IMG/VR virus record: IMGVR_UViG_3300035208_003294
Direction: 5' to 3' (one strand)
Length of the DNA: 20,000 bases
Source of the DNA: an uncultured virus (IMG/VR IMGVR_UViG_3300035208_003294)
Taxonomy: Duplodnaviria > Heunggongvirae > Uroviricota > Caudoviricetes
Below the pieces are notes generated by a model. The model did no database searches, was not told the origin of the DNA, and saw only the letters and a program-made list of their open reading frames with translations. Below are positions 2,310 through 19,049 of this stretch, one piece after another (position 1 is the first letter of the stretch; each line of letters begins with the position of its first letter). A program made the position numbers and the translations under genes.

Positions 2310-2355
2310 TATTTAAACCCTATGATTAGATATTTTATTCAATCCCATATAAAAA

Positions 2356-2490
2356 CTAAGATGTTGTCTCTATCGTTCTCGACACCTTTGAAATTGTAGG
2401 TCTTTCAATCGATGGGGTGATTGATTCTATTATTGGCTGCTCCGGTGCGAACACCGGTTGCCAAACCGTTCCTCCTTCTCCTCCTGGCAT
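2356..2490 (-). CDS. Small hypothetical protein, 44 aa (absent from the ORF track)
   Basis: Hand translation: MPGGEGGTVWQPVFAPEQPIIESITPSIERPTISKVSRTIETTS*. The ATG is 7 nt after the stop of 2498..6181 and the ORF fills most of the gap. Confidence 0.5.
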   Translation of the reverse strand: MPGGEGGTVWQPVFAPEQPIIESITPSIERPTISKVSRTIETTS

Positions 2491-2497
2491 TTTCTTT

Positions 2498-5400
2498 TTA
2501 CCTCGTGTACGTTGTCCAGTTTATCTTGAAACTCTGGCTCAAGTTTGGTGGATTGTAGTAATCAGCCCAGAGCCATATCATCTGCGAGCCTCCGATACTG
2601 ATGTTATTGTATACTGTGTACCTGGTGTTCTCTGTGAAGTTCACCGCCATAGAAACATCTGAACTGTTCCCCCATTTTAAGGTGACATTCTGAATGGATC
2701 GGTTGACCCACAGAACTGCAGCCAAAACATCAGTATAATTGTTGCTGAAATTCAGTGCGCCAATGGTGGCAGACTGGCCGCTAATATTGACGTTCTTCTC
2801 ACTCCTATGCCTCGGGAAGAAATATATGTTGCTTATTCCAGAGGACTTACCTATTCGGGCATCATATTGACTCTCATAGGTAAGGTTCGAAAGGTCGAAA
2901 ATCAAATTCCCTCCCCAGATGCTTGAAACAGAAATGTTGTACTGACAAGTACCAGACCAGGAATAATTGGAACAATTGTTCAAGGGGAACGTTATTGCCA
3001 CCGGGCCCGGGAACGAACCATTCTGAGAATAGAAATTTGCTACTGTGCAGGATCCGCTAGATAGATTGATACTCACATTCTCTGGTGCCGGTGTCGTATT
3101 GCTTACCCAAACCGTCTGATTGACGAAATACGCATTACAAGGGGCCGAAATATTAAACGATGATCTAGTGCTGTTTATAGTTTCATTAAATCCTACCACG
3201 TCTACATAGTAGAATCCTGAAGCATTTGAATTTCTGCAGATCACGTTGAATCTGTTATAGCCCAGGTTCGATAAAGTAGTCATCTCCTTTGAAGCGCTTA
3301 TTGTTGAATTCACGAAAGTATCGTAGACATCGTTCACGTAGACGCTGGCGTTACAGGTCCCTATACCAAAGTAGAGTTCGGGAGTCCTATCACTGAAAAA
3401 CGTTCCATTAGTCGTGAGGTTCACGTCCTGGTTGGAATAAGTGAAAGTCTCGCTTATGTTGCTGAACCCCCCAACATCGTACTCAGTTACGTTGAAATAA
3501 TAAACCTCTGAAAAAAGATCTCCAATTATTGCCGAACAAAGGTTTGCAGAGCAGTTCATTACATATTGCGTTCCTGACCAGCTTAAGTTCGCGCTACTAA
3601 AGTTCACGTCTGAATATGAAGCGTTAATGAATACAGACCTGTTGAAAGCCTCAACAAAGTTATTTGTTGGACTCACAATAGAAACGCTCTGAGGCCTATT
3701 AAGAGTGAAAGAGACATTAGAGCTGTTCACCACATTTCCTGCAGTATCGACACAAGAAACATAAGCGCTATGCAGACCATCATCATAAGTATTCGCTACA
3801 TTGTGTGTGTATTCCACATTACTTGGGATTGAAGATAAAAGCCACCAAACAGCTTCTTCACCAAAATCTATTCCTCCCACATAATTCCAAATTGGATACC
3901 AAGAGGTTGTTCCATTTTGGCAGCTTAAGTTTTGTGTGTTCCACATATTGAAATATGATTTTAGGCGTAGGTTTAGCGTGGTTCCATATTCAAAACAAGA
4001 GGAAGGTATGGTCTCATTGTATAACCAATAACTGCTTCTTCCATAATATATTTTTGATGAATTTTGAGTATTTATGGGCTTGGTATAATTCACATAAAAA
4101 TAACTTGTGTCGCTCGTTCCATAACCACCTGTACTAAAAATTCCGTCGTAGTATTTTGTAGCTGGGTATGTCCCCGAGAAAGTGCCAGTATAATTATAGG
4201 TCCCTGTATTCAGTCCCCCACATGTAGTGGCTACGTTTGCAGTTTCCTGGTAACACCATTCGGATTCCGATTCAGAATCCTTTACCCCGTCTATAAATAA
4301 AGAGCAATTATAAGCATCTTCCGGACCCGATACTGTGTAATTAATATTTGGTTGTGAGGTAAATGATGCATTGAGTGACGAGTTCAACACGACAACAGTT
4401 CCACACGACGACGACCCATTTTGACATGATGACCCATCAAAATAGCATTGTTTACCATTTCCAGCACCGGTACCAGTATATCGTGATTCACAATCTGAAG
4501 GATTGGTTTCCAAAGTGCAGGATGAAATATACGTTCCGGTACAGGCTAATGTGGTGGTGGTGGTCGTCGTTGTTGTCGTAGTGGTTGTAGTTGTCGTAGT
4601 GGTTGTAGTTGTCGTGGTCGTGGTTACGTTGACTGTGAAGTATTGGCTTACCTGCGCTAGGTTTCCAGCTGTGTCGTTCGCGTAGACGGTCACAGAGTAA
4701 TTGCTATTTGACAGGTTCAACGTGATATTTTGGCAGGCTGATAAACTGATTGAGGCCGTGCTGTTGACTGAGTACCAGCATTGTTGAAGGTTCGTGTCTT
4801 GGGCAGTATAGTTCAAACTGATGTTCGCAATGCTATAAGTCGTATTCGCAGGAGATTGGATGGTGATGTTCGGAAGAATCGTATCAACTGTCAAAGTCCT
4901 GGTCTCGCTTGTTCCGTTGTTTCCTGACGAATCATTAGCCCAGCCATAGTATGAATACGTGCCAGAAGAGAGATTAGACATGTTCGCGTAGAACCTCCAT
5001 TCCGTGCTGTTATACTGGTTCCAAGTCCACACATTGGCCAACCGGTATACTGGGAATAAGTAAGAGGAATTCATACTTGAGAAGTTATTGTATACTTCTG
5101 TTGTATTCTGATACGTTGTGTAGATTTGAGATTCCGCAGAACCACTACAGCAGCGAAACCCGAGGTAGCCGGTCACGGCCGAAGGCGCGGCGGCCAGGCT
5201 GGCGCAGAACACGCCCGCAGCGGCCCCATGGAGCCAGGTGCCGCCCCGGAGAACCGCACGCCCGCTGGTCGTGTCGCCGTAGAAGTATACGTCGTCCATG
5301 CCGTATCTCCCGTCGTCGGCTGCGCTCGTCGTAGACCAGTTGCCGCTCGTTGTATTGATATAATACCACCCGCTCGTAGGACCCGGCGCAATGGTTGTAA

Positions 5401-6181
5401 CCGATTCGTTAACCCACTCCCATAGGTTCCCGACCAGGTCGTATACGCCTTCCGTTGAGCGGCAATTCGTCCTGGAACCAGTCAAACATACCCGGTTGTC
5501 AGCGTATGAGCCGTTAATCTGGCAGAAATAATTTGTATTACAATTCAACGAGGTATCGCTGTCGTCTCCCGGAATATAATGCCCTGATTCTCCGGTAGGC
5601 AGATAATAGACGGTTCCAAGAACGTTCGCCGCAGCAAGCCACTCATCCGAGGTGCAAAGGTGCTTTCCTGTGTTGGCGCACATCTGCCGAGCCTGCTTCT
5701 GCGAAACCCCGGCCAAAGGCACTACGTTGGGTCTACTTGTAGCATTAACGCTTGTCCCAGTATCGCTATCTATGCCTCCGAACACTCCGCTTACGGGAAC
5801 GCACAAGGACGCATTACAATACCCCTCAGACGTGTAGCTGGCGCAATTACTGCCCGGAGAGCCGTCGCATCCCGGAACACTCGCCTCATACTGGTCGATG
5901 CAGTACCCGCCCAACGCATCGATATACGACATGTTCCCGCTGCAATTCACCGCATGGAAAGTAGTGTTGGTCTCATTCCAGTTGAACTTGAAGGTGTCCA
6001 GGTTCTCCTCCTCTATTGAGATATTAACTTCTATCCAGTTCCTACCAATGATGCTTTGATTAGCTTCGGTAGGGGGCTGGAAGGAAAGATTAAGGGACTG
6101 AACGGAGACAATAGACGAAAATAAAAACAACGTTAAAGCTATTAAGCCTAGTTTTCCACCGGAAAAAACATTAATTTTCAT
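2498..6181 (-). CDS. Secreted modular surface glycoprotein 1 (1227 aa): Ig-like scaffold with inserted CLec/FGE-sulfatase-fold DGR-target domain, Ig repeat, poly-Thr linker, Cys-rich module, further Ig-like domains
   Basis: Signal peptide; YCIDQYEAS, QARQMC..GKHLCTSDEW, GVYDLVGNLWEWV and RGG.W...GFRCC (FGE/CLec fold); YANDTAGN-type archaeal Ig repeats; very many N-x-S/T sequons; no C-terminal TM. Confidence 0.85.
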   Translation of the reverse strand: MKINVFSGGKLGLIALTLFLFSSIVSVQSLNLSFQPPTEANQSIIGRNWIEVNISIEEENLDTFKFNWNETNTTFHAVNCSGNMSYIDALGGYCIDQYEASVPGCDGSPGSNCASYTSEGYCNASLCVPVSGVFGGIDSDTGTSVNATSRPNVVPLAGVSQKQARQMCANTGKHLCTSDEWLAAANVLGTVYYLPTGESGHYIPGDDSDTSLNCNTNYFCQINGSYADNRVCLTGSRTNCRSTEGVYDLVGNLWEWVNESVTTIAPGPTSGWYYINTTSGNWSTTSAADDGRYGMDDVYFYGDTTSGRAVLRGGTWLHGAAAGVFCASLAAAPSAVTGYLGFRCCSGSAESQIYTTYQNTTEVYNNFSSMNSSYLFPVYRLANVWTWNQYNSTEWRFYANMSNLSSGTYSYYGWANDSSGNNGTSETRTLTVDTILPNITIQSPANTTYSIANISLNYTAQDTNLQQCWYSVNSTASISLSACQNITLNLSNSNYSVTVYANDTAGNLAQVSQYFTVNVTTTTTTTTTTTTTTTTTTTTTTTTTLACTGTYISSCTLETNPSDCESRYTGTGAGNGKQCYFDGSSCQNGSSSCGTVVVLNSSLNASFTSQPNINYTVSGPEDAYNCSLFIDGVKDSESESEWCYQETANVATTCGGLNTGTYNYTGTFSGTYPATKYYDGIFSTGGYGTSDTSYFYVNYTKPINTQNSSKIYYGRSSYWLYNETIPSSCFEYGTTLNLRLKSYFNMWNTQNLSCQNGTTSWYPIWNYVGGIDFGEEAVWWLLSSIPSNVEYTHNVANTYDDGLHSAYVSCVDTAGNVVNSSNVSFTLNRPQSVSIVSPTNNFVEAFNRSVFINASYSDVNFSSANLSWSGTQYVMNCSANLCSAIIGDLFSEVYYFNVTEYDVGGFSNISETFTYSNQDVNLTTNGTFFSDRTPELYFGIGTCNASVYVNDVYDTFVNSTISASKEMTTLSNLGYNRFNVICRNSNASGFYYVDVVGFNETINSTRSSFNISAPCNAYFVNQTVWVSNTTPAPENVSINLSSGSCTVANFYSQNGSFPGPVAITFPLNNCSNYSWSGTCQYNISVSSIWGGNLIFDLSNLTYESQYDARIGKSSGISNIYFFPRHRSEKNVNISGQSATIGALNFSNNYTDVLAAVLWVNRSIQNVTLKWGNSSDVSMAVNFTENTRYTVYNNISIGGSQMIWLWADYYNPPNLSQSFKINWTTYTR
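4550..4624 (-). repeat. Poly-Thr coding repeat (25 ACN codons)
   Basis: Degenerate trinucleotide tract that includes a duplicated 18-mer (gttgtcgtagtggttgta on the + strand). Confidence 0.95.
5147..5260 (-). other. DGR variable region (VR)-like segment
   Basis: Encodes RAVLRGGTWLHGAAAGVFCASLAAAPSAVTGYLGFRCC. Only 5 A in 114 coding-strand nt, all within NNY codons at positions where CLec DGR templates carry AAY; the invariant codons contain no A. Confidence 0.8.
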
Positions 6182-6198: not shown

Positions 6199-6357
6199 TT
6201 ATTTCTGGAATGTTCCCTGATACGCGGCAGGTGTAAGGCTTCCTGAAGTTGTGATCGTACCACACGCCGAGATAGCGAACACTGTTGAAGACAATACCAT
6301 CAGCGCCAACAAAATTCTCTTTATCCCTGAAAGCTTATACGTACTGGATCGTGACAT
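6199..6357 (-). pseudogene. Remnant of a fourth secreted surface-protein gene (signal peptide plus start of a beta-helix cap), 52 aa
   Basis: Hand translation: MSRSSTYKLSGIKRILLALMVLSSTVFAISACGTITTSGSLTPAAYQGTFQK*. ISACGTITTSGS resembles VTNCSTITTPGDY in the neighbouring protein, and similarity is lost after it. Confidence 0.55.
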
Positions 6358-8893
6358 TGTTCGAGTTCCCAACATAATAGTTCTTCGAGTAATTAGACAT
6401 CACACACCAATCTACCAGGATATTGTTCTGTCTATTAATGTATACGCCGTAGCCACTGCCTTCCCCTGTGAAGCTGGAACCTAGGCAGGTAAGGGATACA
6501 CTGTCTGCTGCAATCACGAAGCACGTAGAGTTGCTATGTTGTCCTGAAAGGATTACGTAATCGCCGGGCGTTGTGATTGTTGAACAGTTAGTTACTAGAG
6601 TATGGTTTACTACAAAATATTGTGTTGTCTGTGCAAGATTCCCAACACTATCATTGGCATACAATGTTATGTTATATGTCCCCTTGCTCAGGTTAAGGCT
6701 AACGTTATTACATGAGGAGAGACTTGTATTAGACGTACTGTTTATCGAATACCAACAACCACCCAAGTGTACATCGTAGACCGTATAGTTTAAACTAAGG
6801 TTCCCAGACACATAGGAAGTGTTTTCAGGGAATTGGATGGAGATAGACGGGGACGTAGTATCTACTGTGAAATACTGGCTTACCTGTGCAAGATTACCGG
6901 CAGTATCGTTAGCGTATACAGTAACGCTGTAATTGCTATCGGATAAGTTCAATGTAAGGTTGCTACAATCGGGTACGCTTACTGAAGGCGTGTTGTTCAA
7001 GGAATACCAGCACTGCTGTAAATGCGTGTCAATTACAGTGTAGTTCAAACTGATATTCGATATGATGTATGTAGTATTGGTTGGGCTCTGGATTGTTATA
7101 TTAGGCAATACTAAATCAACCGTCAACGTCCTGGTCTCGCTTGTTCCGTTGTTACCGGACGTGTCATTAGCCCAACCATAGTAGGAATAAGTGCCATCTG
7201 ATAAGTTCGTGAGATTAGCGTAGAAACGATACTCGGTGCTGTTGTATTTCTGGAACTCGGACTCATACTGGAACCAAATTTCAGAAGCAGATAAGGGGCG
7301 GTTGTAGATACGGAGTTCATCAAGAGTTCCATTTAAATTTCTAGTGTTTACTGAGTTATCAAATAAATACGTGGTTCCTGATGAAATATTAATTGCCCCT
7401 TTACCTACCGTATTTGATGAAGTTGAGAAAACCCCATTTTGATATATGCTAATATTTGTTAAATTTAGTATAATCGCAAAATGTGTCCAAGTATTTATTG
7501 AGATTGCATTTGGAGTGGTGGCAAGGAAAGTTATTGGCGTACTTCCATTTGACGTATCTACTTGTAGTATTCCCGTCGATGCATAAATAAATATTCTTAA
7601 ATTACCATTACTATCAATTATACGGGGTGTTGTTTCTCCGTATCCGCTTCTAGGATATAACCAAAAAGAAATAGTTGCATTATTTATTTCGGGAAATGAT
7701 GGTACTTGTGAAAGACAGTTTTTTCCAGGACAATCTAATCCAAGTTCAAACTTTCCAGGAAGGTAACTGAGATTAGCAGAGGTCATATTGTTCCCATATT
7801 TCGATATATCCACTGCATAGGTGCTATTCTCTCCTATTGCTGAATTATTATTGAAATTCAACGCCAACACAAGAGATGGGTCGTATATCGAATAGTTTGC
7901 CCCGTTCCAGTTGAACTTGAAGGTGTCAAGTGTTTCATTCGTGGAAATAGACACATTCACTTCCGAGTAATTAGCACCGATAACAGCACCATCATCAGGA
8001 GTAGGGGGAAGGAAGGAAAGAGACAACGGTATGACATCCGCAAGAGTGGTCGTCGTCGTAGTTGTCGTGGTTGTCGTTGTTGTAGTCGTTGTGGTTGTGG
8101 TTGTTGTAGTAGTGGTTGATGCAGCTATCGTAATGTTCCTGGAACTGCTCGTATTCGTTACCGCTCCAACAGAGCAATTCACGTTCCAGAGATATGATCC
8201 GTCGGCAAGAGTAGAGTTTGCAGTAATCACCGTAGCCGTATTATTCGTAGTGTTCCCGTTTGCTATGCTCCAATTCCAAGATACCTCGTCGAATTGGCTT
8301 GTTACCCCAGACGTAAGAGTATACCAACCAGTTCCATTAAAACAGTATATCCCATAGCTTCCGGCATCGATGGTGTTGCTGTAAAACCTGAACTGTTTAG
8401 GATCCTGCGCCATACATAAACTGCTAATCGCTACGGTATAATTATTCGCGAATCTAACATATTGGACGACCGATGAAGCGGTAGCCAAACCAGGGGAAGA
8501 AATATTCACATAAGCATATTCTCCAGTAACCGAGCCAGAAGCAGAAGTAGACCAATCTCCGTCGAACATGTAAGAGAGATTGTTCCACCCAGAGGTATTA
8601 GTCAACAATCCATTATAATTCAATCCACAAGAACCATCCCCCACACGAGCTTCACTGAAATTACCCTGAAAGCAAGGAGTCTGCGCAAGACCATATCCTG
8701 AGTTGTTCAAGAACAGTTGACAAGTATACGTGTCTTCATCTCCAGATACCGTGAAGTTGAAATCTGGAGTATTATCAGAAGTAATATTAGCTTCTTCGGG
8801 GGTATTAAGTATTATACTAAGGGCTTGAGCGGAGACTAAAGGTAGAGCTAAGATCAACAACAACGATCCCAAAAACAATTTTGCATTTTTCAT
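6335..8893 (-). CDS. Secreted modular surface glycoprotein 2 (852 aa): Ig scaffold with Cys-containing insert, poly-Thr, Ig scaffold with LamG-like insert, two Ig repeats, truncated beta-helix start
   Basis: Signal peptide; LamG/concanavalin-like motifs TISFWLYP, WTHFAI and GTLDELRIYNRPLSASEI; YANDTAGN repeats; C-terminal CSTITTPGDYVI...GYGVYI NosD-like start; sequon-rich. Confidence 0.85.
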   Translation of the reverse strand: MKNAKLFLGSLLLILALPLVSAQALSIILNTPEEANITSDNTPDFNFTVSGDEDTYTCQLFLNNSGYGLAQTPCFQGNFSEARVGDGSCGLNYNGLLTNTSGWNNLSYMFDGDWSTSASGSVTGEYAYVNISSPGLATASSVVQYVRFANNYTVAISSLCMAQDPKQFRFYSNTIDAGSYGIYCFNGTGWYTLTSGVTSQFDEVSWNWSIANGNTTNNTATVITANSTLADGSYLWNVNCSVGAVTNTSSSRNITIAASTTTTTTTTTTTTTTTTTTTTTTTTLADVIPLSLSFLPPTPDDGAVIGANYSEVNVSISTNETLDTFKFNWNGANYSIYDPSLVLALNFNNNSAIGENSTYAVDISKYGNNMTSANLSYLPGKFELGLDCPGKNCLSQVPSFPEINNATISFWLYPRSGYGETTPRIIDSNGNLRIFIYASTGILQVDTSNGSTPITFLATTPNAISINTWTHFAIILNLTNISIYQNGVFSTSSNTVGKGAINISSGTTYLFDNSVNTRNLNGTLDELRIYNRPLSASEIWFQYESEFQKYNSTEYRFYANLTNLSDGTYSYYGWANDTSGNNGTSETRTLTVDLVLPNITIQSPTNTTYIISNISLNYTVIDTHLQQCWYSLNNTPSVSVPDCSNLTLNLSDSNYSVTVYANDTAGNLAQVSQYFTVDTTSPSISIQFPENTSYVSGNLSLNYTVYDVHLGGCWYSINSTSNTSLSSCNNVSLNLSKGTYNITLYANDSVGNLAQTTQYFVVNHTLVTNCSTITTPGDYVILSGQHSNSTCFVIAADSVSLTCLGSSFTGEGSGYGVYINRQNNILVDWCVMSNYSKNYYVGNSNNVTIQYV
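8045..8116 (-). repeat. Poly-Thr coding repeat (24 ACN codons)
   Basis: Degenerate trinucleotide tract between the two scaffold modules. Confidence 0.95.
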
Positions 8894-10309: not shown

Positions 10310-13186
10310 TTACCTCCTCCTGCGATATATAGTCACCAATATAGTTGCCATGCCAAGGGCCCCCAAGAGATAGATGATGTTCCTGGAGATCCCACTTGCC
10401 CTATAGCTCGAGACTATTATTGCCCTGTTGCGTTCTATTGAGACATTGAATAAGCAAGTAGTTAAATTCTCTCCCGTTATCTTTGCATTCCTGAAAGCAT
10501 AATCACAGGGAGACGTTGAATTGATCCCTAGAACCATGTCTGATACATTAAACCCTGAGAAAGATAGATGATCGTTTCCTATGAAGGTTATGTTCGTTGA
10601 ATTCTCGAAATAGACATCTTCATTCATACCTTCGAAATAATCTACTGGACCAACCCCGTACCAAAGAGATACGTTATGTGAATCGGTGGATTGTTCCCAG
10701 ACAAGGTAACCAGAGCTGTTGACCATTAAAGAAGATAACGAACCGGAATCATTCTTGTACCACATGCTGTTTGGGGTGTTGTTTCCTGCGGTGATGTTCA
10801 CCGGACCACTGCCAGAAACATTACTGATAATGACCTGGATGAGGGAAGAGTTCTTAACGGAAACAAAGGCGTTTACGATAGTGCCGGAAGGGGGAGTGAT
10901 GGAGAGATTGGTTTGAGAATACCACTGCATGTCAGTAGGCAAAGAAATGTTGATTTGAGAAGAAGAGATGAGGTTAGGTAGACCAAAAATCAAGTAATCA
11001 TTAAATTGTAGGGTAACATTGTTAACAACAGAACTATTCGCATTTGCAAAACTATTTCCTGAACGATTAATTTTATAGTAAACTTGTGGAATTGCCATGT
11101 AGCCTTGTATTAATGTGCTATTCAGTCCATTCCTCCACGAAAAAACACTTGAAACATTTTCAGGAATAAAATAAGTATCAGCATCTACAAGGTTTGTAGG
11201 CTTCTGTGAACTTGTATTCCAGTGATTAAGAGAAAAGTCGTGAGTGATATTCTGATTGCTAGCTCCTTGTAACCATAAATCAACATAGAAACCAGAGCAA
11301 GTATTATTTGCTACTATCCAGTTTTTAGCAGCGGTTGTAGTGATATATGATATGTTGTCTGTTGATAGTTCGTTATTTGTTGACCTCCAAAGTCCATATA
11401 GTTCTCCAAAGAAAGCACATGAACCTGGGTTATGGTATTGGTAAGTTAGTGTTTGGGATAGATTTATAAATGGATATGCCGAAATAGTATTATTAACGAA
11501 TGACCCATTATTACAGTTATCAAATGCTGCAAATCCGGTGCTTCCAATACCAAACATTACGTTGTTCTGGACTGAAACATTTGATACATTCATACAACGA
11601 ATACCAAGATTATACCCATCTGAATTGAACGTAATGTTTGAGAACGTATTTCCACTCGCAGACAAATCTCTATTGACAAGTCCTGACCAGGCTGTGTTAC
11701 CGATGAGTAATCCTATATCGCAATTATATATTGTGTTATTTTCTGCTTTAGAACCAATTCCATAAATCCCCATACAATTACCAACTGTCCATGCAGCAGA
11801 TGACGCATCATGTGAAACGCTGTTCTTTATTGTTCCATTTATAGAATAAGAATAAATGGGAGATTTCTCGGCATTACAACTATTTACAGTACCATTAACG
11901 CTGCTTCCAGATAGAAGAATAATGCCTTTACTACAGTTTATTACACTCACATTAAAAACTGTATTATTACTTCCTCTATCCTCTACTCCTTCATCATAGC
12001 CTTGGACAGTTAGGTTCTTCACAACTGAATTTGTTCCTCTCATCGAGATTCCTGCAAAAGAACCATTCCCAATTAATGTAAGATTTCCATCTCCGGTCAG
12101 TGTTTGATTGTTACCAGTTAATAGAAATATCCCTTCATATCCTGTTGAATTTATTTGATAGCTTCCTGAACAAATATGTAGTTCTGTGTTGTCCACACCA
12201 AATGTTCTTATGTATGCTGAAAAACAACGATAAAGATTTTGAATATTTGTTTGACCGATTATGTTGCTAGTATCGTTAGCCCAGCCATAATAGGTATATG
12301 TACCAGATGAGAGATTCGTTACGTTCACATAGAAGCGGTACTCCGTCGAATTGTATTTCTGGAACTCAGAGCGGTAATGCAAGGCTATTTCTAATGCTGA
12401 CAAGGAACGATTATACATCCTAAATTCGTCAATAGATACTGTATGATTCAACTCAGAGTCTGCAAGATATGGAACCGTAGTCATAGGATTCATTACTCCA
12501 GTAAATGGCTTAGAACATTGTAATGCCCCATTTAGATATATTGAAATGTTTGTTCCTGAATATACTAAAGCATAGTGAAACCAACCTAAAGGCACTGTTC
12601 CACAGCCGTCGTTAAGTGTTGCCGTAGAATTTGAAACAACAAACTTGAAAATACCTCCTTCAATTCTAAATTTGTATTGATTCCAACTAGACATAAAAAT
12701 ATTGAAATTTGCAGATAGATTTGTTGTATTAACCCATGCCATTTGAGTATATGTTGTCCCTACATTTGATATTATTGGACAACGAATATTTGTTGCAACA
12801 TTTGAAGTGCTAACTGCATTTTCATATTTCCCTGCAATTATTGTGAGGGTTGAATTACAAACATTGTTGAGTTTGCTTATATCAATAGCCGTTGTCGCAT
12901 TCTCTCCTATCGCTGAATTATTATTGAAATTCATCGCTAACACTAACGAAGGGTCGTATATTGAGTAATTCACCCCATTCCAGTTATAGATGAACGAATC
13001 CAAAGAAGCATTGCTGAAATTACCCGTAATCGTAATATTCGACTCAACATAATTCGCACTGATAACAGCACCATCCAAAGCAGTAGGGGGCTGGAAGGAA
13101 AGATTAAGGGATTGAGCGGAGACAAAAGAAGAACTCACCATGACTAGAATTAGAAGTAGAAATGCCTGGAAGGTCTTCTTGATCAT
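10310..13186 (-). CDS. Membrane-anchored surface glycoprotein 3 (958 aa): Ig scaffold with LamG-like insert, parallel beta-helix (pectin-lyase/NosD-like), C-terminal TM
   Basis: Signal peptide; YTQMAWVN, WFHYALVY and IDEFRMYNRSLSALEI; repeated beta-helix rungs (NNTIYNCDIG, GNTFSNI); C-terminal IIYLLGALGMATILVTIYRRRR anchor; GAGGT SD. Confidence 0.85.
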   Translation of the reverse strand: MIKKTFQAFLLLILVMVSSSFVSAQSLNLSFQPPTALDGAVISANYVESNITITGNFSNASLDSFIYNWNGVNYSIYDPSLVLAMNFNNNSAIGENATTAIDISKLNNVCNSTLTIIAGKYENAVSTSNVATNIRCPIISNVGTTYTQMAWVNTTNLSANFNIFMSSWNQYKFRIEGGIFKFVVSNSTATLNDGCGTVPLGWFHYALVYSGTNISIYLNGALQCSKPFTGVMNPMTTVPYLADSELNHTVSIDEFRMYNRSLSALEIALHYRSEFQKYNSTEYRFYVNVTNLSSGTYTYYGWANDTSNIIGQTNIQNLYRCFSAYIRTFGVDNTELHICSGSYQINSTGYEGIFLLTGNNQTLTGDGNLTLIGNGSFAGISMRGTNSVVKNLTVQGYDEGVEDRGSNNTVFNVSVINCSKGIILLSGSSVNGTVNSCNAEKSPIYSYSINGTIKNSVSHDASSAAWTVGNCMGIYGIGSKAENNTIYNCDIGLLIGNTAWSGLVNRDLSASGNTFSNITFNSDGYNLGIRCMNVSNVSVQNNVMFGIGSTGFAAFDNCNNGSFVNNTISAYPFINLSQTLTYQYHNPGSCAFFGELYGLWRSTNNELSTDNISYITTTAAKNWIVANNTCSGFYVDLWLQGASNQNITHDFSLNHWNTSSQKPTNLVDADTYFIPENVSSVFSWRNGLNSTLIQGYMAIPQVYYKINRSGNSFANANSSVVNNVTLQFNDYLIFGLPNLISSSQINISLPTDMQWYSQTNLSITPPSGTIVNAFVSVKNSSLIQVIISNVSGSGPVNITAGNNTPNSMWYKNDSGSLSSLMVNSSGYLVWEQSTDSHNVSLWYGVGPVDYFEGMNEDVYFENSTNITFIGNDHLSFSGFNVSDMVLGINSTSPCDYAFRNAKITGENLTTCLFNVSIERNRAIIVSSYRASGISRNIIYLLGALGMATILVTIYRRRR

Positions 13187-14849: not shown

Positions 14850-15713
14850 TTAGGTCGTCGGTATCTTTGCGAAGGCGTCTATGTCGTGTATCTCCACTGT
14901 GAGCCACTCACTCAGGGATACAGGGAACAGGTCTTCCTCAGTCATGGTGTACGTCTTCAGCTTGGGGTTCTGGCTTATGACCAGCTCGGCTGCGTCAGGA
15001 TCTTTGCATCCTATGTAGACGTTTCCTGCAGTCACGTGAGCTGATTTCACCAGGAAATCCTCTTTCTTCTTCGCGCCCGGGAACAGGTCTACTATCGTCA
15101 TCCAGTAGGGCTGCCTCTTGCTGTCAAGACCGTTCAGCTTGTTTATGTCTGTCGGGTTCCCCAGTATGTACGAGGGCTCGAAGTTGGTGTTCAACGTTGC
15201 TATCGCATTCAGGATGTCCTGGTGCATATCGCAGGCTTCACTCTGATCCCATGCTCCGTTGTTGGTGATGGTGTTCGCTGCTGCAACACAACCGGTTATC
15301 CCTGTTATGTTAGCTGCGGAGTATCCGTTCAGGGCGAGTTTGTCCTCTTTCCTGTGGATCATCTTCGTGCATCTCTCGACTTCCTTCGCTTTCAGCTTCG
15401 GGTCCTGTGCTAAGTCCCTTTCGTGGACGTAGAAACTCTCTTTCAGCTGGTAGATGGTGAAGTTCTTCGTGGAAACGAAGGTGTTTCCGACATTCCCTCT
15501 CGCGCCCTTGGCGGTAATGAGTATGTCTGAATCGTCTGTTGCATCCATGATAGTCACAACGTCTGTGTCTATCGTCGAACCAACGTTCCTTATGGGCAAT
15601 ATCTTCCTTGCCACCATGTTGTCCTTATAATCCTCTGCGTAGGCCGCAAGGATTTTTGTCCATTCCTCCACATTGCGTGCAGGAATTCCCATCGCGGAAT
15701 CTGATGCTATCAT
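14850..15713 (-). CDS. Major capsid protein, HK97 fold, encapsulin/Linocin_M18-like
   Basis: 287 aa; MVARKILPIR, IYQLKESFYVHERDL, MIHRKEDKLALNG..AANITGI and C-terminal LTVEIHDIDAFAKI; follows DUF2213 and the cement genes. Confidence 0.8.
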   Translation of the reverse strand: MIASDSAMGIPARNVEEWTKILAAYAEDYKDNMVARKILPIRNVGSTIDTDVVTIMDATDDSDILITAKGARGNVGNTFVSTKNFTIYQLKESFYVHERDLAQDPKLKAKEVERCTKMIHRKEDKLALNGYSAANITGITGCVAAANTITNNGAWDQSEACDMHQDILNAIATLNTNFEPSYILGNPTDINKLNGLDSKRQPYWMTIVDLFPGAKKKEDFLVKSAHVTAGNVYIGCKDPDAAELVISQNPKLKTYTMTEEDLFPVSLSEWLTVEIHDIDAFAKIPTT

Positions 15714-15725
15714 TTTAGTGTGTGT

Positions 15726-16361
15726 TTATCCTCTCAACAGGCATTTTACCTGTACGAGCTTCTTCATGTTCTGCGAGCTGTACGAAAACTTCAGCGCAGT
15801 TTTGAAAGTTACCTGTGTCGTACTATCCACTGTGGCAATCTGAACTACTTCAGAGTCTGTCGCAGTAGCATCTGTCGCTCCCTGTAGGTAGACCATGTCG
15901 CCTGCTAAGAAATAAGCAGTCGATGTGACAGTTGCTGTCTTTGCTCCTGCTGTCGCGGTGCTCATCGCGGTCGTGTAGTTAGAAACTTCAGCATCCTCGA
16001 GCGCCCTTGCGCATGTGGTCGAGACTGCTTCAGTCGTCGCGCTCTCTCTTACCATAAGCCCTGAATCGTTCGCGAGCTTTAGCAGATCGCCTGCAGCAAC
16101 GTCTGTTCCCCCACCAACTACTGGAAGGTAAACTATCCCTGCAACTATGACGGGTACTGGATCATAAGTGCTGTAACATCCGGGCTGAGTCTTTTCGACA
16201 ATGTCATCCTCGGCTATGCCGATGAATCCTCTCGTGTTCGCTCCGTCAACGGCAACAACGACTGTTCCCGCTGCAGAGTATTTCACCGCCGAGCCGAATG
16301 GAATCTCTCCGGCGGCAGTCATGTGTTCCGTGTGCCATACATCTACGGCTATTCTTTTCAT
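15726..16361 (-). CDS. Capsid cement/decoration-like protein, paralog B
   Basis: AAGEIPFGSAVK...FIGIA...DPVPVIVAGIVYL...VAAGDLL...ARALEDA pattern; position between scaffold and capsid genes. Confidence 0.7.
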   Translation of the reverse strand: MKRIAVDVWHTEHMTAAGEIPFGSAVKYSAAGTVVVAVDGANTRGFIGIAEDDIVEKTQPGCYSTYDPVPVIVAGIVYLPVVGGGTDVAAGDLLKLANDSGLMVRESATTEAVSTTCARALEDAEVSNYTTAMSTATAGAKTATVTSTAYFLAGDMVYLQGATDATATDSEVVQIATVDSTTQVTFKTALKFSYSSQNMKKLVQVKCLLRG

Positions 16362-16374
16362 TTTGTAGTTGAAT

Positions 16375-17007
16375 TTATGTTCGTAATTTCGCTCTCACCT
16401 GGCAGATCTTCCTCACGTTCTTTGAACTGTAGGAGAATCTGCAAGGTTCTTTCAGCGTCATCTGAGTTCCTGAGTCTATCGACTCCACTTGCGCTATCTC
16501 TGAATCTGTCGCCAGCCCGGAAGTTCCTTCCAGGAGAACCATGTTGCCTGCGGCAAAATATGTCGTATCATCCACCGTAAGAACTTTTGAACCTGCAGTT
16601 CCTGTTGTGAGCGAGCATGTGTATAGGGACGGGTCCATATTCTCAAGAGCCCTTGCGCACGTTGCAGATGCTGACTCATCAGTAGCGCTCTCAAGAGCGA
16701 AAAGCCCTAGATCGTTTGCTATTGACAATAGGCATCCTGCAGTTATCGCGGTCCCTCCGCCGACAATTGGGAGATTGACTATCCCGGCAGTTATGACAGG
16801 AACCGCCTGCCCCCACTGATAACAACCGGCTCTCTGCATGCCGCAATAATTATCCTGGGCAACGCCCAGAAAACCCCTGGTGTTTGACCCATCGATCGCT
16901 TTGACCACCGTTCCTGCCCCGGAACGTATAACCGCCGCTCCGAAGAATATCTCTCCTGCGGCAGTGTAGTGCTCTACAGCCCATACATTGACTGAAACCC
17001 TTTGCAT
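16375..17007 (-). CDS. Capsid cement/decoration-like protein, paralog A
   Basis: Colinear full-length paralog of 15726..16361 (TAAGEI.FG.AV, NTRGF.G.A, LANDxGL, TCARALE, ATDSE, FSYSS.N). Confidence 0.7.
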   Translation of the reverse strand: MQRVSVNVWAVEHYTAAGEIFFGAAVIRSGAGTVVKAIDGSNTRGFLGVAQDNYCGMQRAGCYQWGQAVPVITAGIVNLPIVGGGTAITAGCLLSIANDLGLFALESATDESASATCARALENMDPSLYTCSLTTGTAGSKVLTVDDTTYFAAGNMVLLEGTSGLATDSEIAQVESIDSGTQMTLKEPCRFSYSSKNVRKICQVRAKLRT

Positions 17008-17008
17008 T

Positions 17009-18076
17009 TTAGACTTTCCTCCTGTTTGAAATCTTAGTGTAGACGTCGTCTACCATCTTCTGCGAGTCGGAGTCCCTAGTCAATCCGTCTGCAGAAATCT
17101 GCTTGCTTGACTTGTTCTCCTTCGCTATCTTCTCGATCTTCACATGCTCGTTCGTCAGGTCGCAAACCGTCATCTTCTCCAGTTGCTCCCTTGGCATGGA
17201 ATCGGTTATCGCCATGATCTTGCCTATAAGCTCTGTTTTCTTCTCTGCCATCAGCTCGTCCAGCTGCTTTGCCTTGGCTTCAAGATCAGAAACCTTCTTG
17301 ACCTGGGCCGCGTCATTGCTTATCTGGTTGATGGTCTTCGCCTGTGCCTTGATACCGCAGCCGTCAGCGAGACTGCATCTCCCCGATTTCACAATCGCCG
17401 TATGGTTCGAGAGCATGTTCGTCTGGACGTAGTCATACTTCTGGTCGTTGTAAACTCCAGGCTTCTTGACTATCTTGCAGTTGAATCCTAGAGAAACTTC
17501 TCTCGGGCCTTTCTCGTCTTGCATGAGCTTTATGGCTTCTGCCCCATCTATTTCAAAGTCCTGGATTATGGCGTTGTTGTATCTTGGATTCCTCACAAAA
17601 CCGTTTACTTCTGCAGGCTCTGTAACCATCCCTATTTTTGGGTGTTCGATAGTTATTGCATTCGCGTCCATGAATCTCACGGCCTTTTTGAGTTCCTCTG
17701 GATCCTTGAGGACTTTCTTACCATTATAGTCCTGCACACCGGGTTTGCATACGACTACATCAGGAATCACGAGTTTTGAATCTGCAAACCTGAAATTCTT
17801 GGAATCAAGAACTATGTCCACAGAATCATTCGCTATCAGAACCGATTCATCTGCAGAATCCATTGAACTTGTGAGCTCGGGTTCTGGATAAGCGGTTTCA
17901 GAAGTAGTTGTTGATTCGGTGCCTGTCGAAGCGGTCTCTTCCGCAGGAGAGATACTTGGTTCGCCTTCGGTTGCATTAGCTGACTGGTCGGTCCCAGCTT
18001 CGCTGTAAACTATGCCATCCTTATCGCACTTCACTGATCCTGAAATTTGTGACCAGGGAATGATAACTTCTACCAT
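17009..18076 (-). CDS. DUF2213-family prohead protease/scaffold protein
   Basis: KPGVQDY, PEEL, AITIEHP and REVSLGFNC...PGVY...YDYVQTNMLSNHTAIVKSGRC match DUF2213 motifs; coiled-coil scaffold C-terminus; acidic Ser/Thr-rich N-terminal extension. Confidence 0.85.
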   Translation of the reverse strand: MVEVIIPWSQISGSVKCDKDGIVYSEAGTDQSANATEGEPSISPAEETASTGTESTTTSETAYPEPELTSSMDSADESVLIANDSVDIVLDSKNFRFADSKLVIPDVVVCKPGVQDYNGKKVLKDPEELKKAVRFMDANAITIEHPKIGMVTEPAEVNGFVRNPRYNNAIIQDFEIDGAEAIKLMQDEKGPREVSLGFNCKIVKKPGVYNDQKYDYVQTNMLSNHTAIVKSGRCSLADGCGIKAQAKTINQISNDAAQVKKVSDLEAKAKQLDELMAEKKTELIGKIMAITDSMPREQLEKMTVCDLTNEHVKIEKIAKENKSSKQISADGLTRDSDSQKMVDDVYTKISNRRKV

Positions 18077-18099
18077 ATACTATATTTTATATGCCTTAG

Positions 18100-18108
18100 T
18101 TTAAATAC
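18100..18108. promoter_or_regulatory. Bidirectional archaeal TATA box
   Basis: TTTAAATA on + (about 20 nt before the CRISPR repeat) and TATTTAAA on - (about 23 nt before the ATG at 18076). Confidence 0.55.
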
Positions 18109-18127
18109 TTGTCGATTAATAATTAAC

Positions 18128-18217
18128 TATCGAGAAGTACATCCAGTAAAACAAGGATTGAAACACTATCGCTTGTAATAGGCTCTTTACTGTATCCAGT
18201 AAAACAAGTATTGAAAC
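18128..18217 (+). CRISPR. Mini-CRISPR unit: one ~37-nt repeat, one 29-nt spacer, one truncated 24-nt repeat
   Basis: ATCCAGTAAAACAAG[G/T]ATTGAAAC at 18141-18164 and 18194-18217 (23/24 identical), ending in the Cas6-type ATTGAAAC handle. The full copy TATCGAGAAGTACATCCAGTAAAACAAGGATTGAAAC resembles 37-nt archaeal class 1 repeats as I recall them. No cas genes in the window. Confidence 0.8.
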
Positions 18218-18229
18218 AAACAAACAAAT

Positions 18230-18478
18230 ATGATATGCCCAATCTGTGCCCAAAATGTGTTAAAGTGTGATGAATCTATGCAAAATATTGCAGATGATTG
18301 CTACTGCATAGAAGACAGAGGGCCTATTACCAGCACTTACAAACACGTAAATGAAGAATTTCTCGGTGAATTCTTAATGGGAGACGCTTCTACCTTCGTG
18401 ATCAAGGTCGCGCAACTAGGAGGAGTGCCAATAAAAAGAGTGCGCAAAATAGTAGAAACCAGCATGTTAAAACCTTGA
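18230..18478 (+). CDS. Small Cys-rich (Zn-binding) hypothetical protein downstream of the mini-CRISPR
   Basis: 82 aa; CPIC...C...CYC; ATG 12 nt after repeat 2; occupies an otherwise empty gap on the + strand. Confidence 0.6.
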   Translation: MICPICAQNVLKCDESMQNIADDCYCIEDRGPITSTYKHVNEEFLGEFLMGDASTFVIKVAQLGGVPIKRVRKIVETSMLKP

Positions 18479-18502
18479 AGTCGTCCTCTGCTTTTTCCAT
18501 TT

Positions 18503-18670
18503 CTATCTCAACGTTAATGCCACTACTATCAAGACAAAAGTTAATATTACAACTAGCACCCAATTTAGAAATCTGTTCACATCCTCAAAATTCTGTTCCT
18601 CTTCTGGTGACGGTTGGAATTTGTCGAATGCTTCCAGATTAGACCATTCCGGAATTTTTATTCGTTCCAT
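18503..18670 (-). CDS. Small single-TM membrane protein (55 aa)
   Basis: Probable start at ATG 18670 (MERIKIPEW...); C-terminal hydrophobic helix WVLVVILTFVLIVVALTLR. Confidence 0.55.
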   Translation of the reverse strand: MERIKIPEWSNLEAFDKFQPSPEEEQNFEDVNRFLNWVLVVILTFVLIVVALTLR

Positions 18671-19049
18671 CGTGTTTACTCCCAGTTGAAACGTTCTTTG
18701 GCCCCAACATTGCCAGGACAAGATTATTTAAGAAGACATTAGGGAAATGTGTTTCAGTCCCTATGCCGCTGGCCTGATATGCCCACTTACCAGCTTCTTC
18801 TATCTGCCTTGCGAAAATCTCCCTCTTAGCTAGGTCCTTTGAGAAGTCTAAAAGTGGCGGCGGAAGATCCCCGGCGGGTTGAATGCACCAGGCATCTACG
18901 GCTATTAAATCAATGGATGGTTCATCATCCTCTGTCATACGCCTTTCTGCCTGGCATAATTCGCACAATCCAACTTTGTGTTCCTGTGCTCCACTCAAAA
19001 CAAACCCGCAATCAAAACAGATTGCTTTACTTGCTTGCCTTTTTCGCAT
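18639..19049 (-). CDS. Zn-finger hypothetical protein
   Basis: CFDCG...CELC near the N-terminus; part of an overlapping gene chain. Confidence 0.6.
   Translation of the reverse strand: MRKRQASKAICFDCGFVLSGAQEHKVGLCELCQAERRMTEDDEPSIDLIAVDAWCIQPAGDLPPPLLDFSKDLAKREIFARQIEEAGKWAYQASGIGTETHFPNVFLNNLVLAMLGPKNVSTGSKHDGTNKNSGMV

Follow-up and report, generated by a model that had tools for sequence, protein, structure and literature searches.

A shortened repeat-spacer-repeat unit of the CRISPR-DR7 family in an uncultured tailed virus: a candidate virus-encoded crRNA-like RNA

An uncultured tailed archaeal virus carries, in the gap between two divergently oriented genes, a compact repeat-spacer-repeat unit whose first repeat is, judged by its sequence, a bona fide class 1 CRISPR repeat of the AUUGAAAC-tag type, linked in cellular arrays to type I-B cas genes. 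The unit is not a plain excerpt of a host array, because its repeat cores follow one another at a period of only 53 nt and no host-like leader precedes them. We tentatively interpret it as a virus-encoded crRNA-like RNA (a viral “crlRNA”) that would be cut by host Cas6 and would then occupy or redirect class 1 effectors, an interpretation to which we give somewhat less than an even chance.

Results

Anatomy of the unit

In the window, that is, the whole 20,000-nt stretch of viral DNA analysed here, a 24-nt core, ATCCAGTAAAACAAGGATTGAAAC, spans 18141-18164 and returns at 18194-18217, the second time with a single G>T change at 18209. No further copy with up to three mismatches was found in the 20-kb window, nor was an additional copy present in the 6 kb past its end that an overlapping contig provides, and none of 200 shuffled sequences matched the core. 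The first copy forms the 3' part of a full-length repeat (Table 1) that matches the Rfam family CRISPR-DR7 (RF01320) on the + strand over model positions 1-37 with 42.7 bits, passing the family cut-off, a curated gathering score of 37 bits, over the full model. The second copy reaches 21.7 bits, under the cut-off, and because it scores so low without the 5' 13 nt, these nucleotides add real repeat signal to repeat 1. Taken alone, they give a weaker signal: they match the best of 42 distinct host 5' parts at 9/13, a value reached by 3.5% of window 13-mers; the 13 nt preceding repeat 2 are not repeat-like (best 5/13).

The ATCC/GGAT pairing is the stem of the CRISPR-DR7 family, and the G>T change in repeat 2 disrupts one of its G-C pairs, whereas the 8-nt tag is intact in both copies. 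Repeat 2 covers 65% of the repeat length (24 nt) and begins 29 nt past repeat 1; the spacer accordingly measures 29 nt, or 20 nt under the 33-nt alignment of repeat 2 given by cmscan. A preliminary description of this DNA had reported a full repeat with an ATCC/GGAT stem, a 29-nt spacer and a second repeat lacking its 5' 13 nt, with a stem weakened by the G>T change, and each of these elements is borne out. The TATA box that it placed near the first repeat is likewise present, as the TATA-like TTTAAATA within a longer promoter-like motif.

Two side observations concern the boundaries of the unit. The 7-mer ACTATCG stands at the start of repeat 1 (18127-18133) and again at the start of the spacer (18165-18171), so that another reading of the unit is a tandem pair of repeats in which the second has exchanged its 5' part for a longer one. 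In addition, a 41-nt look-alike (four differences) of positions 18188-18228, comprising repeat 2 and its AAACAAACAAAT tail, was found on other contigs (runs X1 and X3) with quite different flanks, which suggests that the cut-down repeat and its A-rich tail form an independent unit in other places too.

Table 1. Features of the unit and its surroundings (window positions)
Feature	Positions	Strand	Evidence and remarks
Promoter-like motif CTTAGTTTAAATA	18095-18107	+	contains TATA-like box TTTAAATA (18100-18107); 20 nt before repeat 1
Repeat 1, full 37-nt CRISPR repeat ending in the 8-nt tag ATTGAAAC	18128-18164	+	Rfam CRISPR-DR7
Spacer-like segment ACTATCG...ACTGT, 29 nt	18165-18193	+	between repeat 1 and repeat 2
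Repeat 2, 24-nt core (stem-loop and tag) without the 5' 13 nt	18194-18217	+	23/24 identical to repeat 1
ORF82, orphan 82-aa gene	18230-18478	+	starts 12 nt after repeat 2; oligo-T run 18492-18496 after the stop
Head-maturation protease gene	17009-18076	-	PHROG 530, E 8e-28; DUF2213, E 1e-22; divergent from the unit
Two tandem cement / virion structural protein paralogues	15726-16361, 16375-17007	-	PF22758, PHROG 563; between protease and major capsid protein
Major capsid protein, HK97/linocin-type	14850-15713	-	in one block with the protease and cement protein genes
Three very large proteins (1227, 852 and 958 aa)	2498-6181, 6335-8893, 10310-13186	-	FGE-sulfatase-like, Laminin_G_3 lectin-fold and Big_13 Ig-like domains

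The repeat family and its link to cas genes

When species genomes were scanned for a slightly degenerate form of the core, at least 128 stretches were returned, forming arrays with a period of about 73 nt. Among the matches listed, such arrays occur in Methanosarcina, Methanoperedens, ANME-2, Methanolobus, Methanococcoides and Methanohalophilus, as well as in Methanophagales, Altiarchaeota, Bathyarchaeia and many bacterial MAGs. The closest over 37 nt, again among the matches listed, are an Altiarchaeales locus (L043, 33/37) and a Methanoperedens locus (L052, 32/37), followed by L102 and L036.

Matches to cas genes adjoin the repeats at four of the five loci checked. Directly ahead of a 44-repeat array of an Altiarchaeia genome (L050/L165) lie cas8b, cas7 (Csh2), cas5b, cas3, cas1 and cas4; at L036 the repeat is preceded by cas3, cas1 and cas4, and L013 has cas4. 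The evidence at L052 is a weak type III RAMP match (40.7 bits, under the curated cut-off of 108), and no cas gene was found in the 10 kb examined at L043. The preliminary description would have lost its footing had the repeat matched no cas-linked array; the arrays of L050/L165 and L036 are cas-linked, and the search that it proposed for subtype and host supplied a type I-B linkage, although the repeat itself does not name the host.

Repeats of 37 nt belonging to type I-B systems of Methanococcus maripaludis and Clostridium thermocellum are reported to yield crRNAs that begin with the tag AUUGAAAC and are trimmed at the 3' end (Richter et al. 2012, PMC3479195). Repeat 1 agrees with type I-B CRISPR-DR7 arrays in matching the whole 37-nt model above the cut-off and in carrying the same 8-nt tag (PMC3479195); the unit departs from them in having only two copies, in its period (53 against about 73 nt) and in residing on a virus.

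Dimensions compared with host arrays

The retrieved host loci supplied 1520 distinct neighbouring repeat pairs, against which the unit could be measured. Core-to-core periods lie between 69 and 102 nt in all 1520 pairs, with a mode of 73, and not one pair has a period of 68 nt or less. The shortfall of the unit is made up of 13 nt from the cut-down repeat 2 and about 7 nt in the spacer. Since the shortest host period, 69 nt, implies a spacer of 32 nt, the 29-nt spacer lies under all 1520 implied values, and the unit does not have the dimensions produced by the host adaptation machinery. Within the 100 nt upstream no host-like leader was detected: the best local score was 26, compared with best scores of 21-33 in 30 shuffles.

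The same core in other viruses

The core recurs at 24 IMG/VR loci, representing 21 distinct contexts, none of which is related to this virus. It is solitary within 200 nt in 14 of the 21 (one of these being cut by the contig end), and seven contexts are two-copy, with periods of 73, 73, 73, 72, 70, 64 and 52 nt. The unit with the shortest period (L136) has the same layout as that of the window: a full repeat (DR7, 41.9 bits), 28 nt, and a cut-down, degenerate copy; the 64-nt period belongs to L145. Counting the window, short periods are thus found in three of eight viral two-copy units as opposed to none of the 1520 host pairs. A same-strand ORF of at least 40 aa starts no more than 150 nt after the repeat in 12 of the 20 distinct viral contexts with readable downstream DNA.

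Two cases deserve separate mention. On an unrelated viral contig (L140, 3001-3272) a 63-aa ORF lies 56 nt past a solitary core and scores 27.9 bits against the Lar restriction-alleviation family, just under the Pfam cut-off of 28.6, an anti-defence setting. Elsewhere, two loci (L147 and L150) proved to be parts of one 117.8-kb IMG/VR contig, which carries two one-spacer units about 68 kb apart, each with a slightly degenerate first copy.

Genomic setting and the adjoining gene ORF82

The large genes of the window all lie on the minus strand and make up a tailed-virus structural block (Pfam, PHROGs), in which the protease comes first, followed by the two cement proteins and the major capsid protein; the three very large proteins probably serve as tail fibres or in host binding. 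A gap of 562 nt, which contains the unit and one small + strand ORF, separates the protease start (18076) from the minus-strand gene that comes next (18639-19049). A 17-kb stretch (L160) of a 77,715-nt metagenome contig overlaps the window over 10,989 nt at 100% identity and extends 6 kb past the window end, where the genes are also on the minus strand. This extension includes about 2 kb (L160 2660-4670, approximately 21407-23417 in window numbering) with no ORF above 76 aa on either strand, on a contig that is otherwise gene-dense; no clear repeats and no Rfam match were found there.

Neither Pfam nor PHROGs revealed cas genes in the 20-kb window and the 6 kb beyond it, and the absence of cas genes asserted at the outset holds over these 26 kb of the 77.7-kb contig. 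The earlier placement of the unit “at the head of the capsid operon” has to be corrected as to strand: the unit lies opposite the capsid genes and points away from them, into the small + strand gene.

The only other copy of CTTAGTTTAAATA in the window is at 2348-2360 (-), 38 nt ahead of the ATG of the gene at 1878-2309; the motif pattern was built from those same two sites, so that this count is no independent test, and its use as a promoter is best treated as a lead. A bacterial promoter and terminator scan returned no result, as would be expected for an archaeal virus.

In a related strain found in run X3, nine of the 12 listed differences within ORF82 are synonymous third-position changes, and the remaining three fall in its last codons (P ~0.004). 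Because the differences are mostly synonymous, this pattern indicates that ORF82 is a real gene under purifying selection and that the + strand is presumably expressed. No family match was obtained for the protein, its only other matches being repetitive surface proteins; the AlphaFold2 model is poor (pLDDT 46.7), and an Atlas search gave weak helix-turn-helix-like leads on a poor model. The simplest reading of the locus would be a single + strand transcript running through promoter, repeat 1, spacer, repeat 2 and ORF82, forming an antisense island within the structural genes.

Strain variation and co-occurring arrays

The form that carries the unit was recovered with zero differences in contigs of one landfill run and two groundwater runs belonging to two studies, and because it is identical in these three runs, the unit is not an assembly artefact; two of the three may themselves be where the DNA studied here originated. 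The related strain in groundwater run X3 is about 92-95% identical to the window. There, a 224-nt contig has 72 other nucleotides between the starts of the protease gene (18076) and ORF82 (18230); these replace the whole 153-nt gap (18077-18229), unit included, with junctions falling exactly at the two divergent start codons. Forms with and without the unit are both present in run X3.

Contigs of runs X3 and X4 also contain the sequence of window positions 18131-18165 recurring after 38-39 other nucleotides, as in a normal CRISPR array. The X4 record shows one repeat copy with 0 differences over 27 nt and the other with 2 over 34 nt, and both intervening stretches end in GAC, the letters with which an L043-type repeat begins. 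Groundwater runs of the study in which the virus is present thus also contain array contigs with a near-identical repeat. As for other relatives, IMG/VR yielded none close to the protease, an 89%-identical protease lies on an 8-kb JGI contig, and capsid-gene relatives at 31-39% identity have no DR7 repeat in the DNA retrieved.

Searches with the spacer

The preliminary description had called for the spacer to be compared with the virome and with host genomes; this brought to light no credible target in IMG/VR 18-mers, GenBank phages or Altiarchaeota genomes. Two spacer 18-mers gave 0 and 3 chance matches in IMG/VR, 50,697 GenBank phage records gave chance matches only, no site with up to three mismatches was found in any of 61 Altiarchaeota genomes, and the longest match in those retrieved loci that were compared was 13 nt. 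The PAM-proximal seed had five matches in 99 kb of candidate cas loci, compared with 1-24 for shuffled spacers, which is chance level, and a 14-mer seed had two matches in three Altiarchaeota genomes, as did a reversed control. In the opposite direction, none of 1695 host spacers from the retrieved arrays matched the window (best 15 nt exact or 18/19). The whole unit had no match in isolates, represented by GenBank phages and PLSDB plasmids.

Two candidate sites were considered and rejected. The best spacer match within the window is 17/29; a site in ORF82 (18319-18334) agrees with the spacer at 14 of 16 positions, yet it reaches only these 17/29 overall, is tied with four other window sites and is attributed to chance. 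The visible part of the X3 variant contains nothing better than this 17/29 site, and at 18337 the variant has a mismatch to the spacer where the window has a match. A 13-nt exact match of the spacer 5' end in one genome (G002) is inside a 403-aa ORF, not in a promoter, and the reversed control gave as many.

The spacer itself bears some resemblance to the repeat. It carries ATC, CTTGT and TTTACTG in this order, amounting to 15 nt of the reverse complement of the core with insertions of 1 and 9 nt; a score of this kind is attained by 2.2% of shuffled spacers (p ~0.02) and by 1.5% of 1519 real host spacers, and the likeness to an inverted repeat core is therefore marginal and only suggestive. 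In the predicted folds, the 5' half of the spacer pairs with repeat 1 and the 3' half with repeat 2, with unexceptional folding energies (z-scores from -0.2 to -1.7).

Host signals

Altiarchaeota arrays (L043, L050 and L036) and one Omnitrophota MAG (L123) contain the exact 24-mer, which is absent from all 392 genomes of the Methanoperedens class. Relatives of the capsid protein at 28-39% identity, on the other hand, occur in 13 of these 392 genomes and in four of 79 of the Methanophagales class, and in none of the 61 Altiarchaeota genomes. Of the 50,697 GenBank phage records, ANMV-1 alone (KP703175.1, recorded host an uncultured archaeon) has a match to the major capsid protein, with a full-length identity of 33%. 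A search of 5.8 billion proteins with the capsid protein brought up only seven, itself included; the virus lineage is sparsely sampled. Tetranucleotide correlation did not discriminate among hosts.

The host signals therefore conflict: the 24-mer points to Altiarchaeota and the capsid gene relatives point to methane-cycling Halobacteriota. The earlier idea that the repeat could identify the host is weakly true as far as the exact 24-mer points to Altiarchaeota arrays; the family, however, extends across many archaeal and bacterial phyla and is too widespread for the repeat to name one.

Discussion

Comparison with known viral CRISPR mimics

Judged by its sequence, the unit appears to fit three known kinds of viral CRISPR mimics in part: it is a mini-array by form, it is not a strict Racr, and it bears the marks of a Cracr with no seed match found. 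Like the arrays of the portogloboviruses SPV1 and SPV2 (Medvedeva et al. 2019, PMC6858448), the unit sets a single spacer between repeats of host type on an archaeal virus that has no cas genes in the vicinity; over the 26 kb covered of the 77.7-kb contig it answers to the general description of a mini-array, in which a virus lacking cas genes has one or two spacers flanked by such repeats. With the arrays of SPV1, SPV2 and the Altiarchaeum viruses it also shares an intergenic position and variation between related strains of one population. It differs from mini-arrays in its 29-nt spacer, compared with at least 32 nt in host arrays, in the 13 nt missing from repeat 2 and in its carrier, a tailed HK97-type virus whose capsid gene has ANMV-1 (33%) as nearest GenBank relative. 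The arrays of SPV1 and SPV2 are described as having a host-like leader (PMC6858448), whereas the unit has no such leader and no target was found for it; what precedes it is a promoter-like motif of the virus's own.

Solitary repeat units are reported to lie just downstream of promoters (Camara-Wilpert et al. 2023, PMC10651486), and the unit resembles Racrs in being a viral repeat mimic right behind a promoter-like motif and without cas genes. Racrs are described as inhibiting the matching CRISPR-Cas system by way of aberrant Cas subcomplexes, and the action proposed for them, the sequestering of Cas6 and Cas7 (PMC10651486), is by analogy also the one that we propose for the unit. The second, partial copy 29 nt away nevertheless sets it apart from solitary units, which have no other full or partial repeat within 100 bp; under the SRUFinder rule of the same authors, a full and a partial match within 100 bp count as a mini-array and not as a solitary unit (PMC10651486).

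Viral crlRNAs are marked, according to a preprint by Liu et al. (10.1101/2024.10.29.618823), by short spacers and degenerate repeats, the spacers of viral crlRNAs being 17-21 nt long, those of host crlRNAs 23-27 nt and those of canonical type I-F crRNAs 32 nt. The unit agrees with Cracr, CreA and CreR RNAs in that its spacer is shortened, its second repeat is degenerate, it lies on a virus and its presumed target is a class 1 type I system, and the likeness to CreA-type RNAs drawn in the preliminary description stands as regards form. Its repeat 1, however, is canonical and not degenerate, and the defining match of these RNAs, at least 9 bp PAM-proximal to a host cas or creT promoter, occurs for the unit at chance level in the 99 kb of candidate cas loci and three genomes. 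The main text of the preprint deals with bacterial cases only, the word “archaea” having no occurrence in it. The repeat family may already be contained in the supplementary tables of the Racr and Cracr papers.

Proposed mode of action

As a virus-encoded crRNA-like RNA, the unit would be transcribed from the + strand promoter-like motif, with a start at about 18130, and the transcript would run through repeat 1, the 29-nt segment, repeat 2 and ORF82 and stop close to the oligo-T run (18492-18496). In repeat 1, and perhaps also in repeat 2, the Cas6 of a host type I-B or linked type III system would cleave at a point 8 nt short of the repeat end, although the loss of the 5' 13 nt and the weakened stem mean that the second cut may not take place. 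The product, an RNA about 53 nt long, would consist of a 29-nt guide preceded by the AUUGAAAC tag and followed by a 16-nt remnant at the 3' end. Its guide being about 7 nt below those of the host, it would assemble an effector with one Cas7 fewer, and the virus would benefit as Cas6 and effector proteins are drawn off host crRNAs, in analogy to the Racr and Cracr RNA anti-CRISPRs. The RNA might also steer effectors to a partly matching site; since no target was found, it may be either a guide that co-opts the host system or a decoy that jams it.

Alternative explanations

The same anatomy lends itself to two further interpretations that have to be taken seriously. One is a true mini-CRISPR array, in which the 29-nt spacer would guide host type I-B or III effectors against a competing virus or plasmid in the same cell, as described for SPV1 and SPV2. 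The repeat-spacer-repeat form on a virus without cas genes and the tag retained in both copies suit this possibility, which we regard as unlikely but far from negligible. Guides of type III systems are trimmed. The 3' ends of type I-B crRNAs are trimmed as well (PMC3479195), so that a short guide and a poor repeat 2 need not block function, and the close strains with and without the unit in run X3 reproduce the population setting of SPV1 and SPV2 (PMC6858448). What speaks against it is a spacer below every length implied by the host pairs, the missing host-like leader that SPV1 and SPV2 are described as having (PMC6858448), and the want of a protospacer in the IMG/VR 18-mers, GenBank phages, Altiarchaeota genomes, window and visible X3 variant, the last being weak evidence, since viral diversity is thinly sampled and no match was obtained either for the one-spacer arrays of Altiarchaeum viruses (Rahlff et al. 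2021, PMC8324899). The other is an inert relic without function: a piece of a host array gained by recombination, in which a later 20-nt deletion removed the spacer end together with the beginning of repeat 2 and a point change arose. A single 20-nt deletion in an ordinary repeat-spacer-repeat unit would indeed give this anatomy without selection, one deletion and one substitution accounting for it entirely; moreover, the related strain does without the unit, the capsid-gene relatives show no such repeat, and target, leader and an exceptional fold are all wanting. Yet the cores differ at only one of 24 positions with both tags intact, the edge of the supposed deletion coincides exactly with that of the core, the unit sits precisely between a promoter-like motif and a conserved gene, the unrelated virus L136 shares the layout with a 52-nt period, and short periods recur among viral two-copy units and not among host pairs, so that decay alone is a doubtful, if serious, contender.

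Other possibilities assign the unit a different role. It might be the 5' untranslated region of ORF82, in which cutting of repeat 2 would create a short-leader mRNA with a crRNA tag and tie expression to host CRISPR activity. Repeat 2 ends immediately ahead of the ATG of a gene that appears to be under purifying selection, the only promoter-like motif is upstream of repeat 1, and same-strand ORFs, one of them Lar-like, follow the repeat in many other viral contexts; however, these ORFs share no homology, same-strand neighbours are expected about half the time by chance, and ORF82 matches no known family, which makes such a Cas6-gated leader very improbable. The unit could also act as DNA or through the opposite strand, either as an attachment site for integration into host arrays or as an antisense “anti-repeat” on minus-strand read-through that pairs with host pre-crRNA. 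Read-through from the flanking genes, all on the minus strand, would yield the antisense of both repeats, and integration into arrays via repeat-like sites has been proposed for solitary repeats (PMC10651486, citing Varble et al.). We nevertheless consider this scarcely credible, given that no integrase was found in 26 kb (Pfam, PHROGs), that the unit lies mid-genome between structural genes, that two assemblies of nearly equal length (77,715 and 77,908 nt) suggest a free genome, and that the Rfam match and the tag are oriented on the + strand, where a + strand gene follows. It is tempting, finally, to combine the crRNA-like and the leader functions: the unit would be a self-masked crRNA mimic whose “spacer”, instead of being acquired from an invader, would go back to an inverted copy of the repeat core and pair with repeat 1 through its 5' half and with repeat 2 through its 3' half, and a Cas6 cut would free a guide-less decoy together with a tag-bearing ORF82 mRNA, the 52-53-nt layout having been reached independently in unrelated viruses. 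This combination is improbable as it stands; if true, one 90-nt insert would let the virus both sense and answer host CRISPR activity.

Significance

Repeats borrowed by viruses are already known as mini-arrays, Racrs and Cracrs, and the tested or well-described cases come from Sulfolobales viruses and bacteriophages. The unit described here would place a shortened-guide element in a tailed virus with a capsid gene akin to those of viruses and proviruses of methane-cycling archaea, and would aim it at the widespread AUUGAAAC-tag type I-B repeat family. The short period, seen in 3/8 viral two-copy units and in 0/1520 host pairs, may serve as a simple rule for telling viral crRNA-like units from fragments of host arrays in metagenomes. 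The coexistence of strains with and without the unit in one groundwater sample would, moreover, constitute a natural test of the benefit that the unit confers on the virus.
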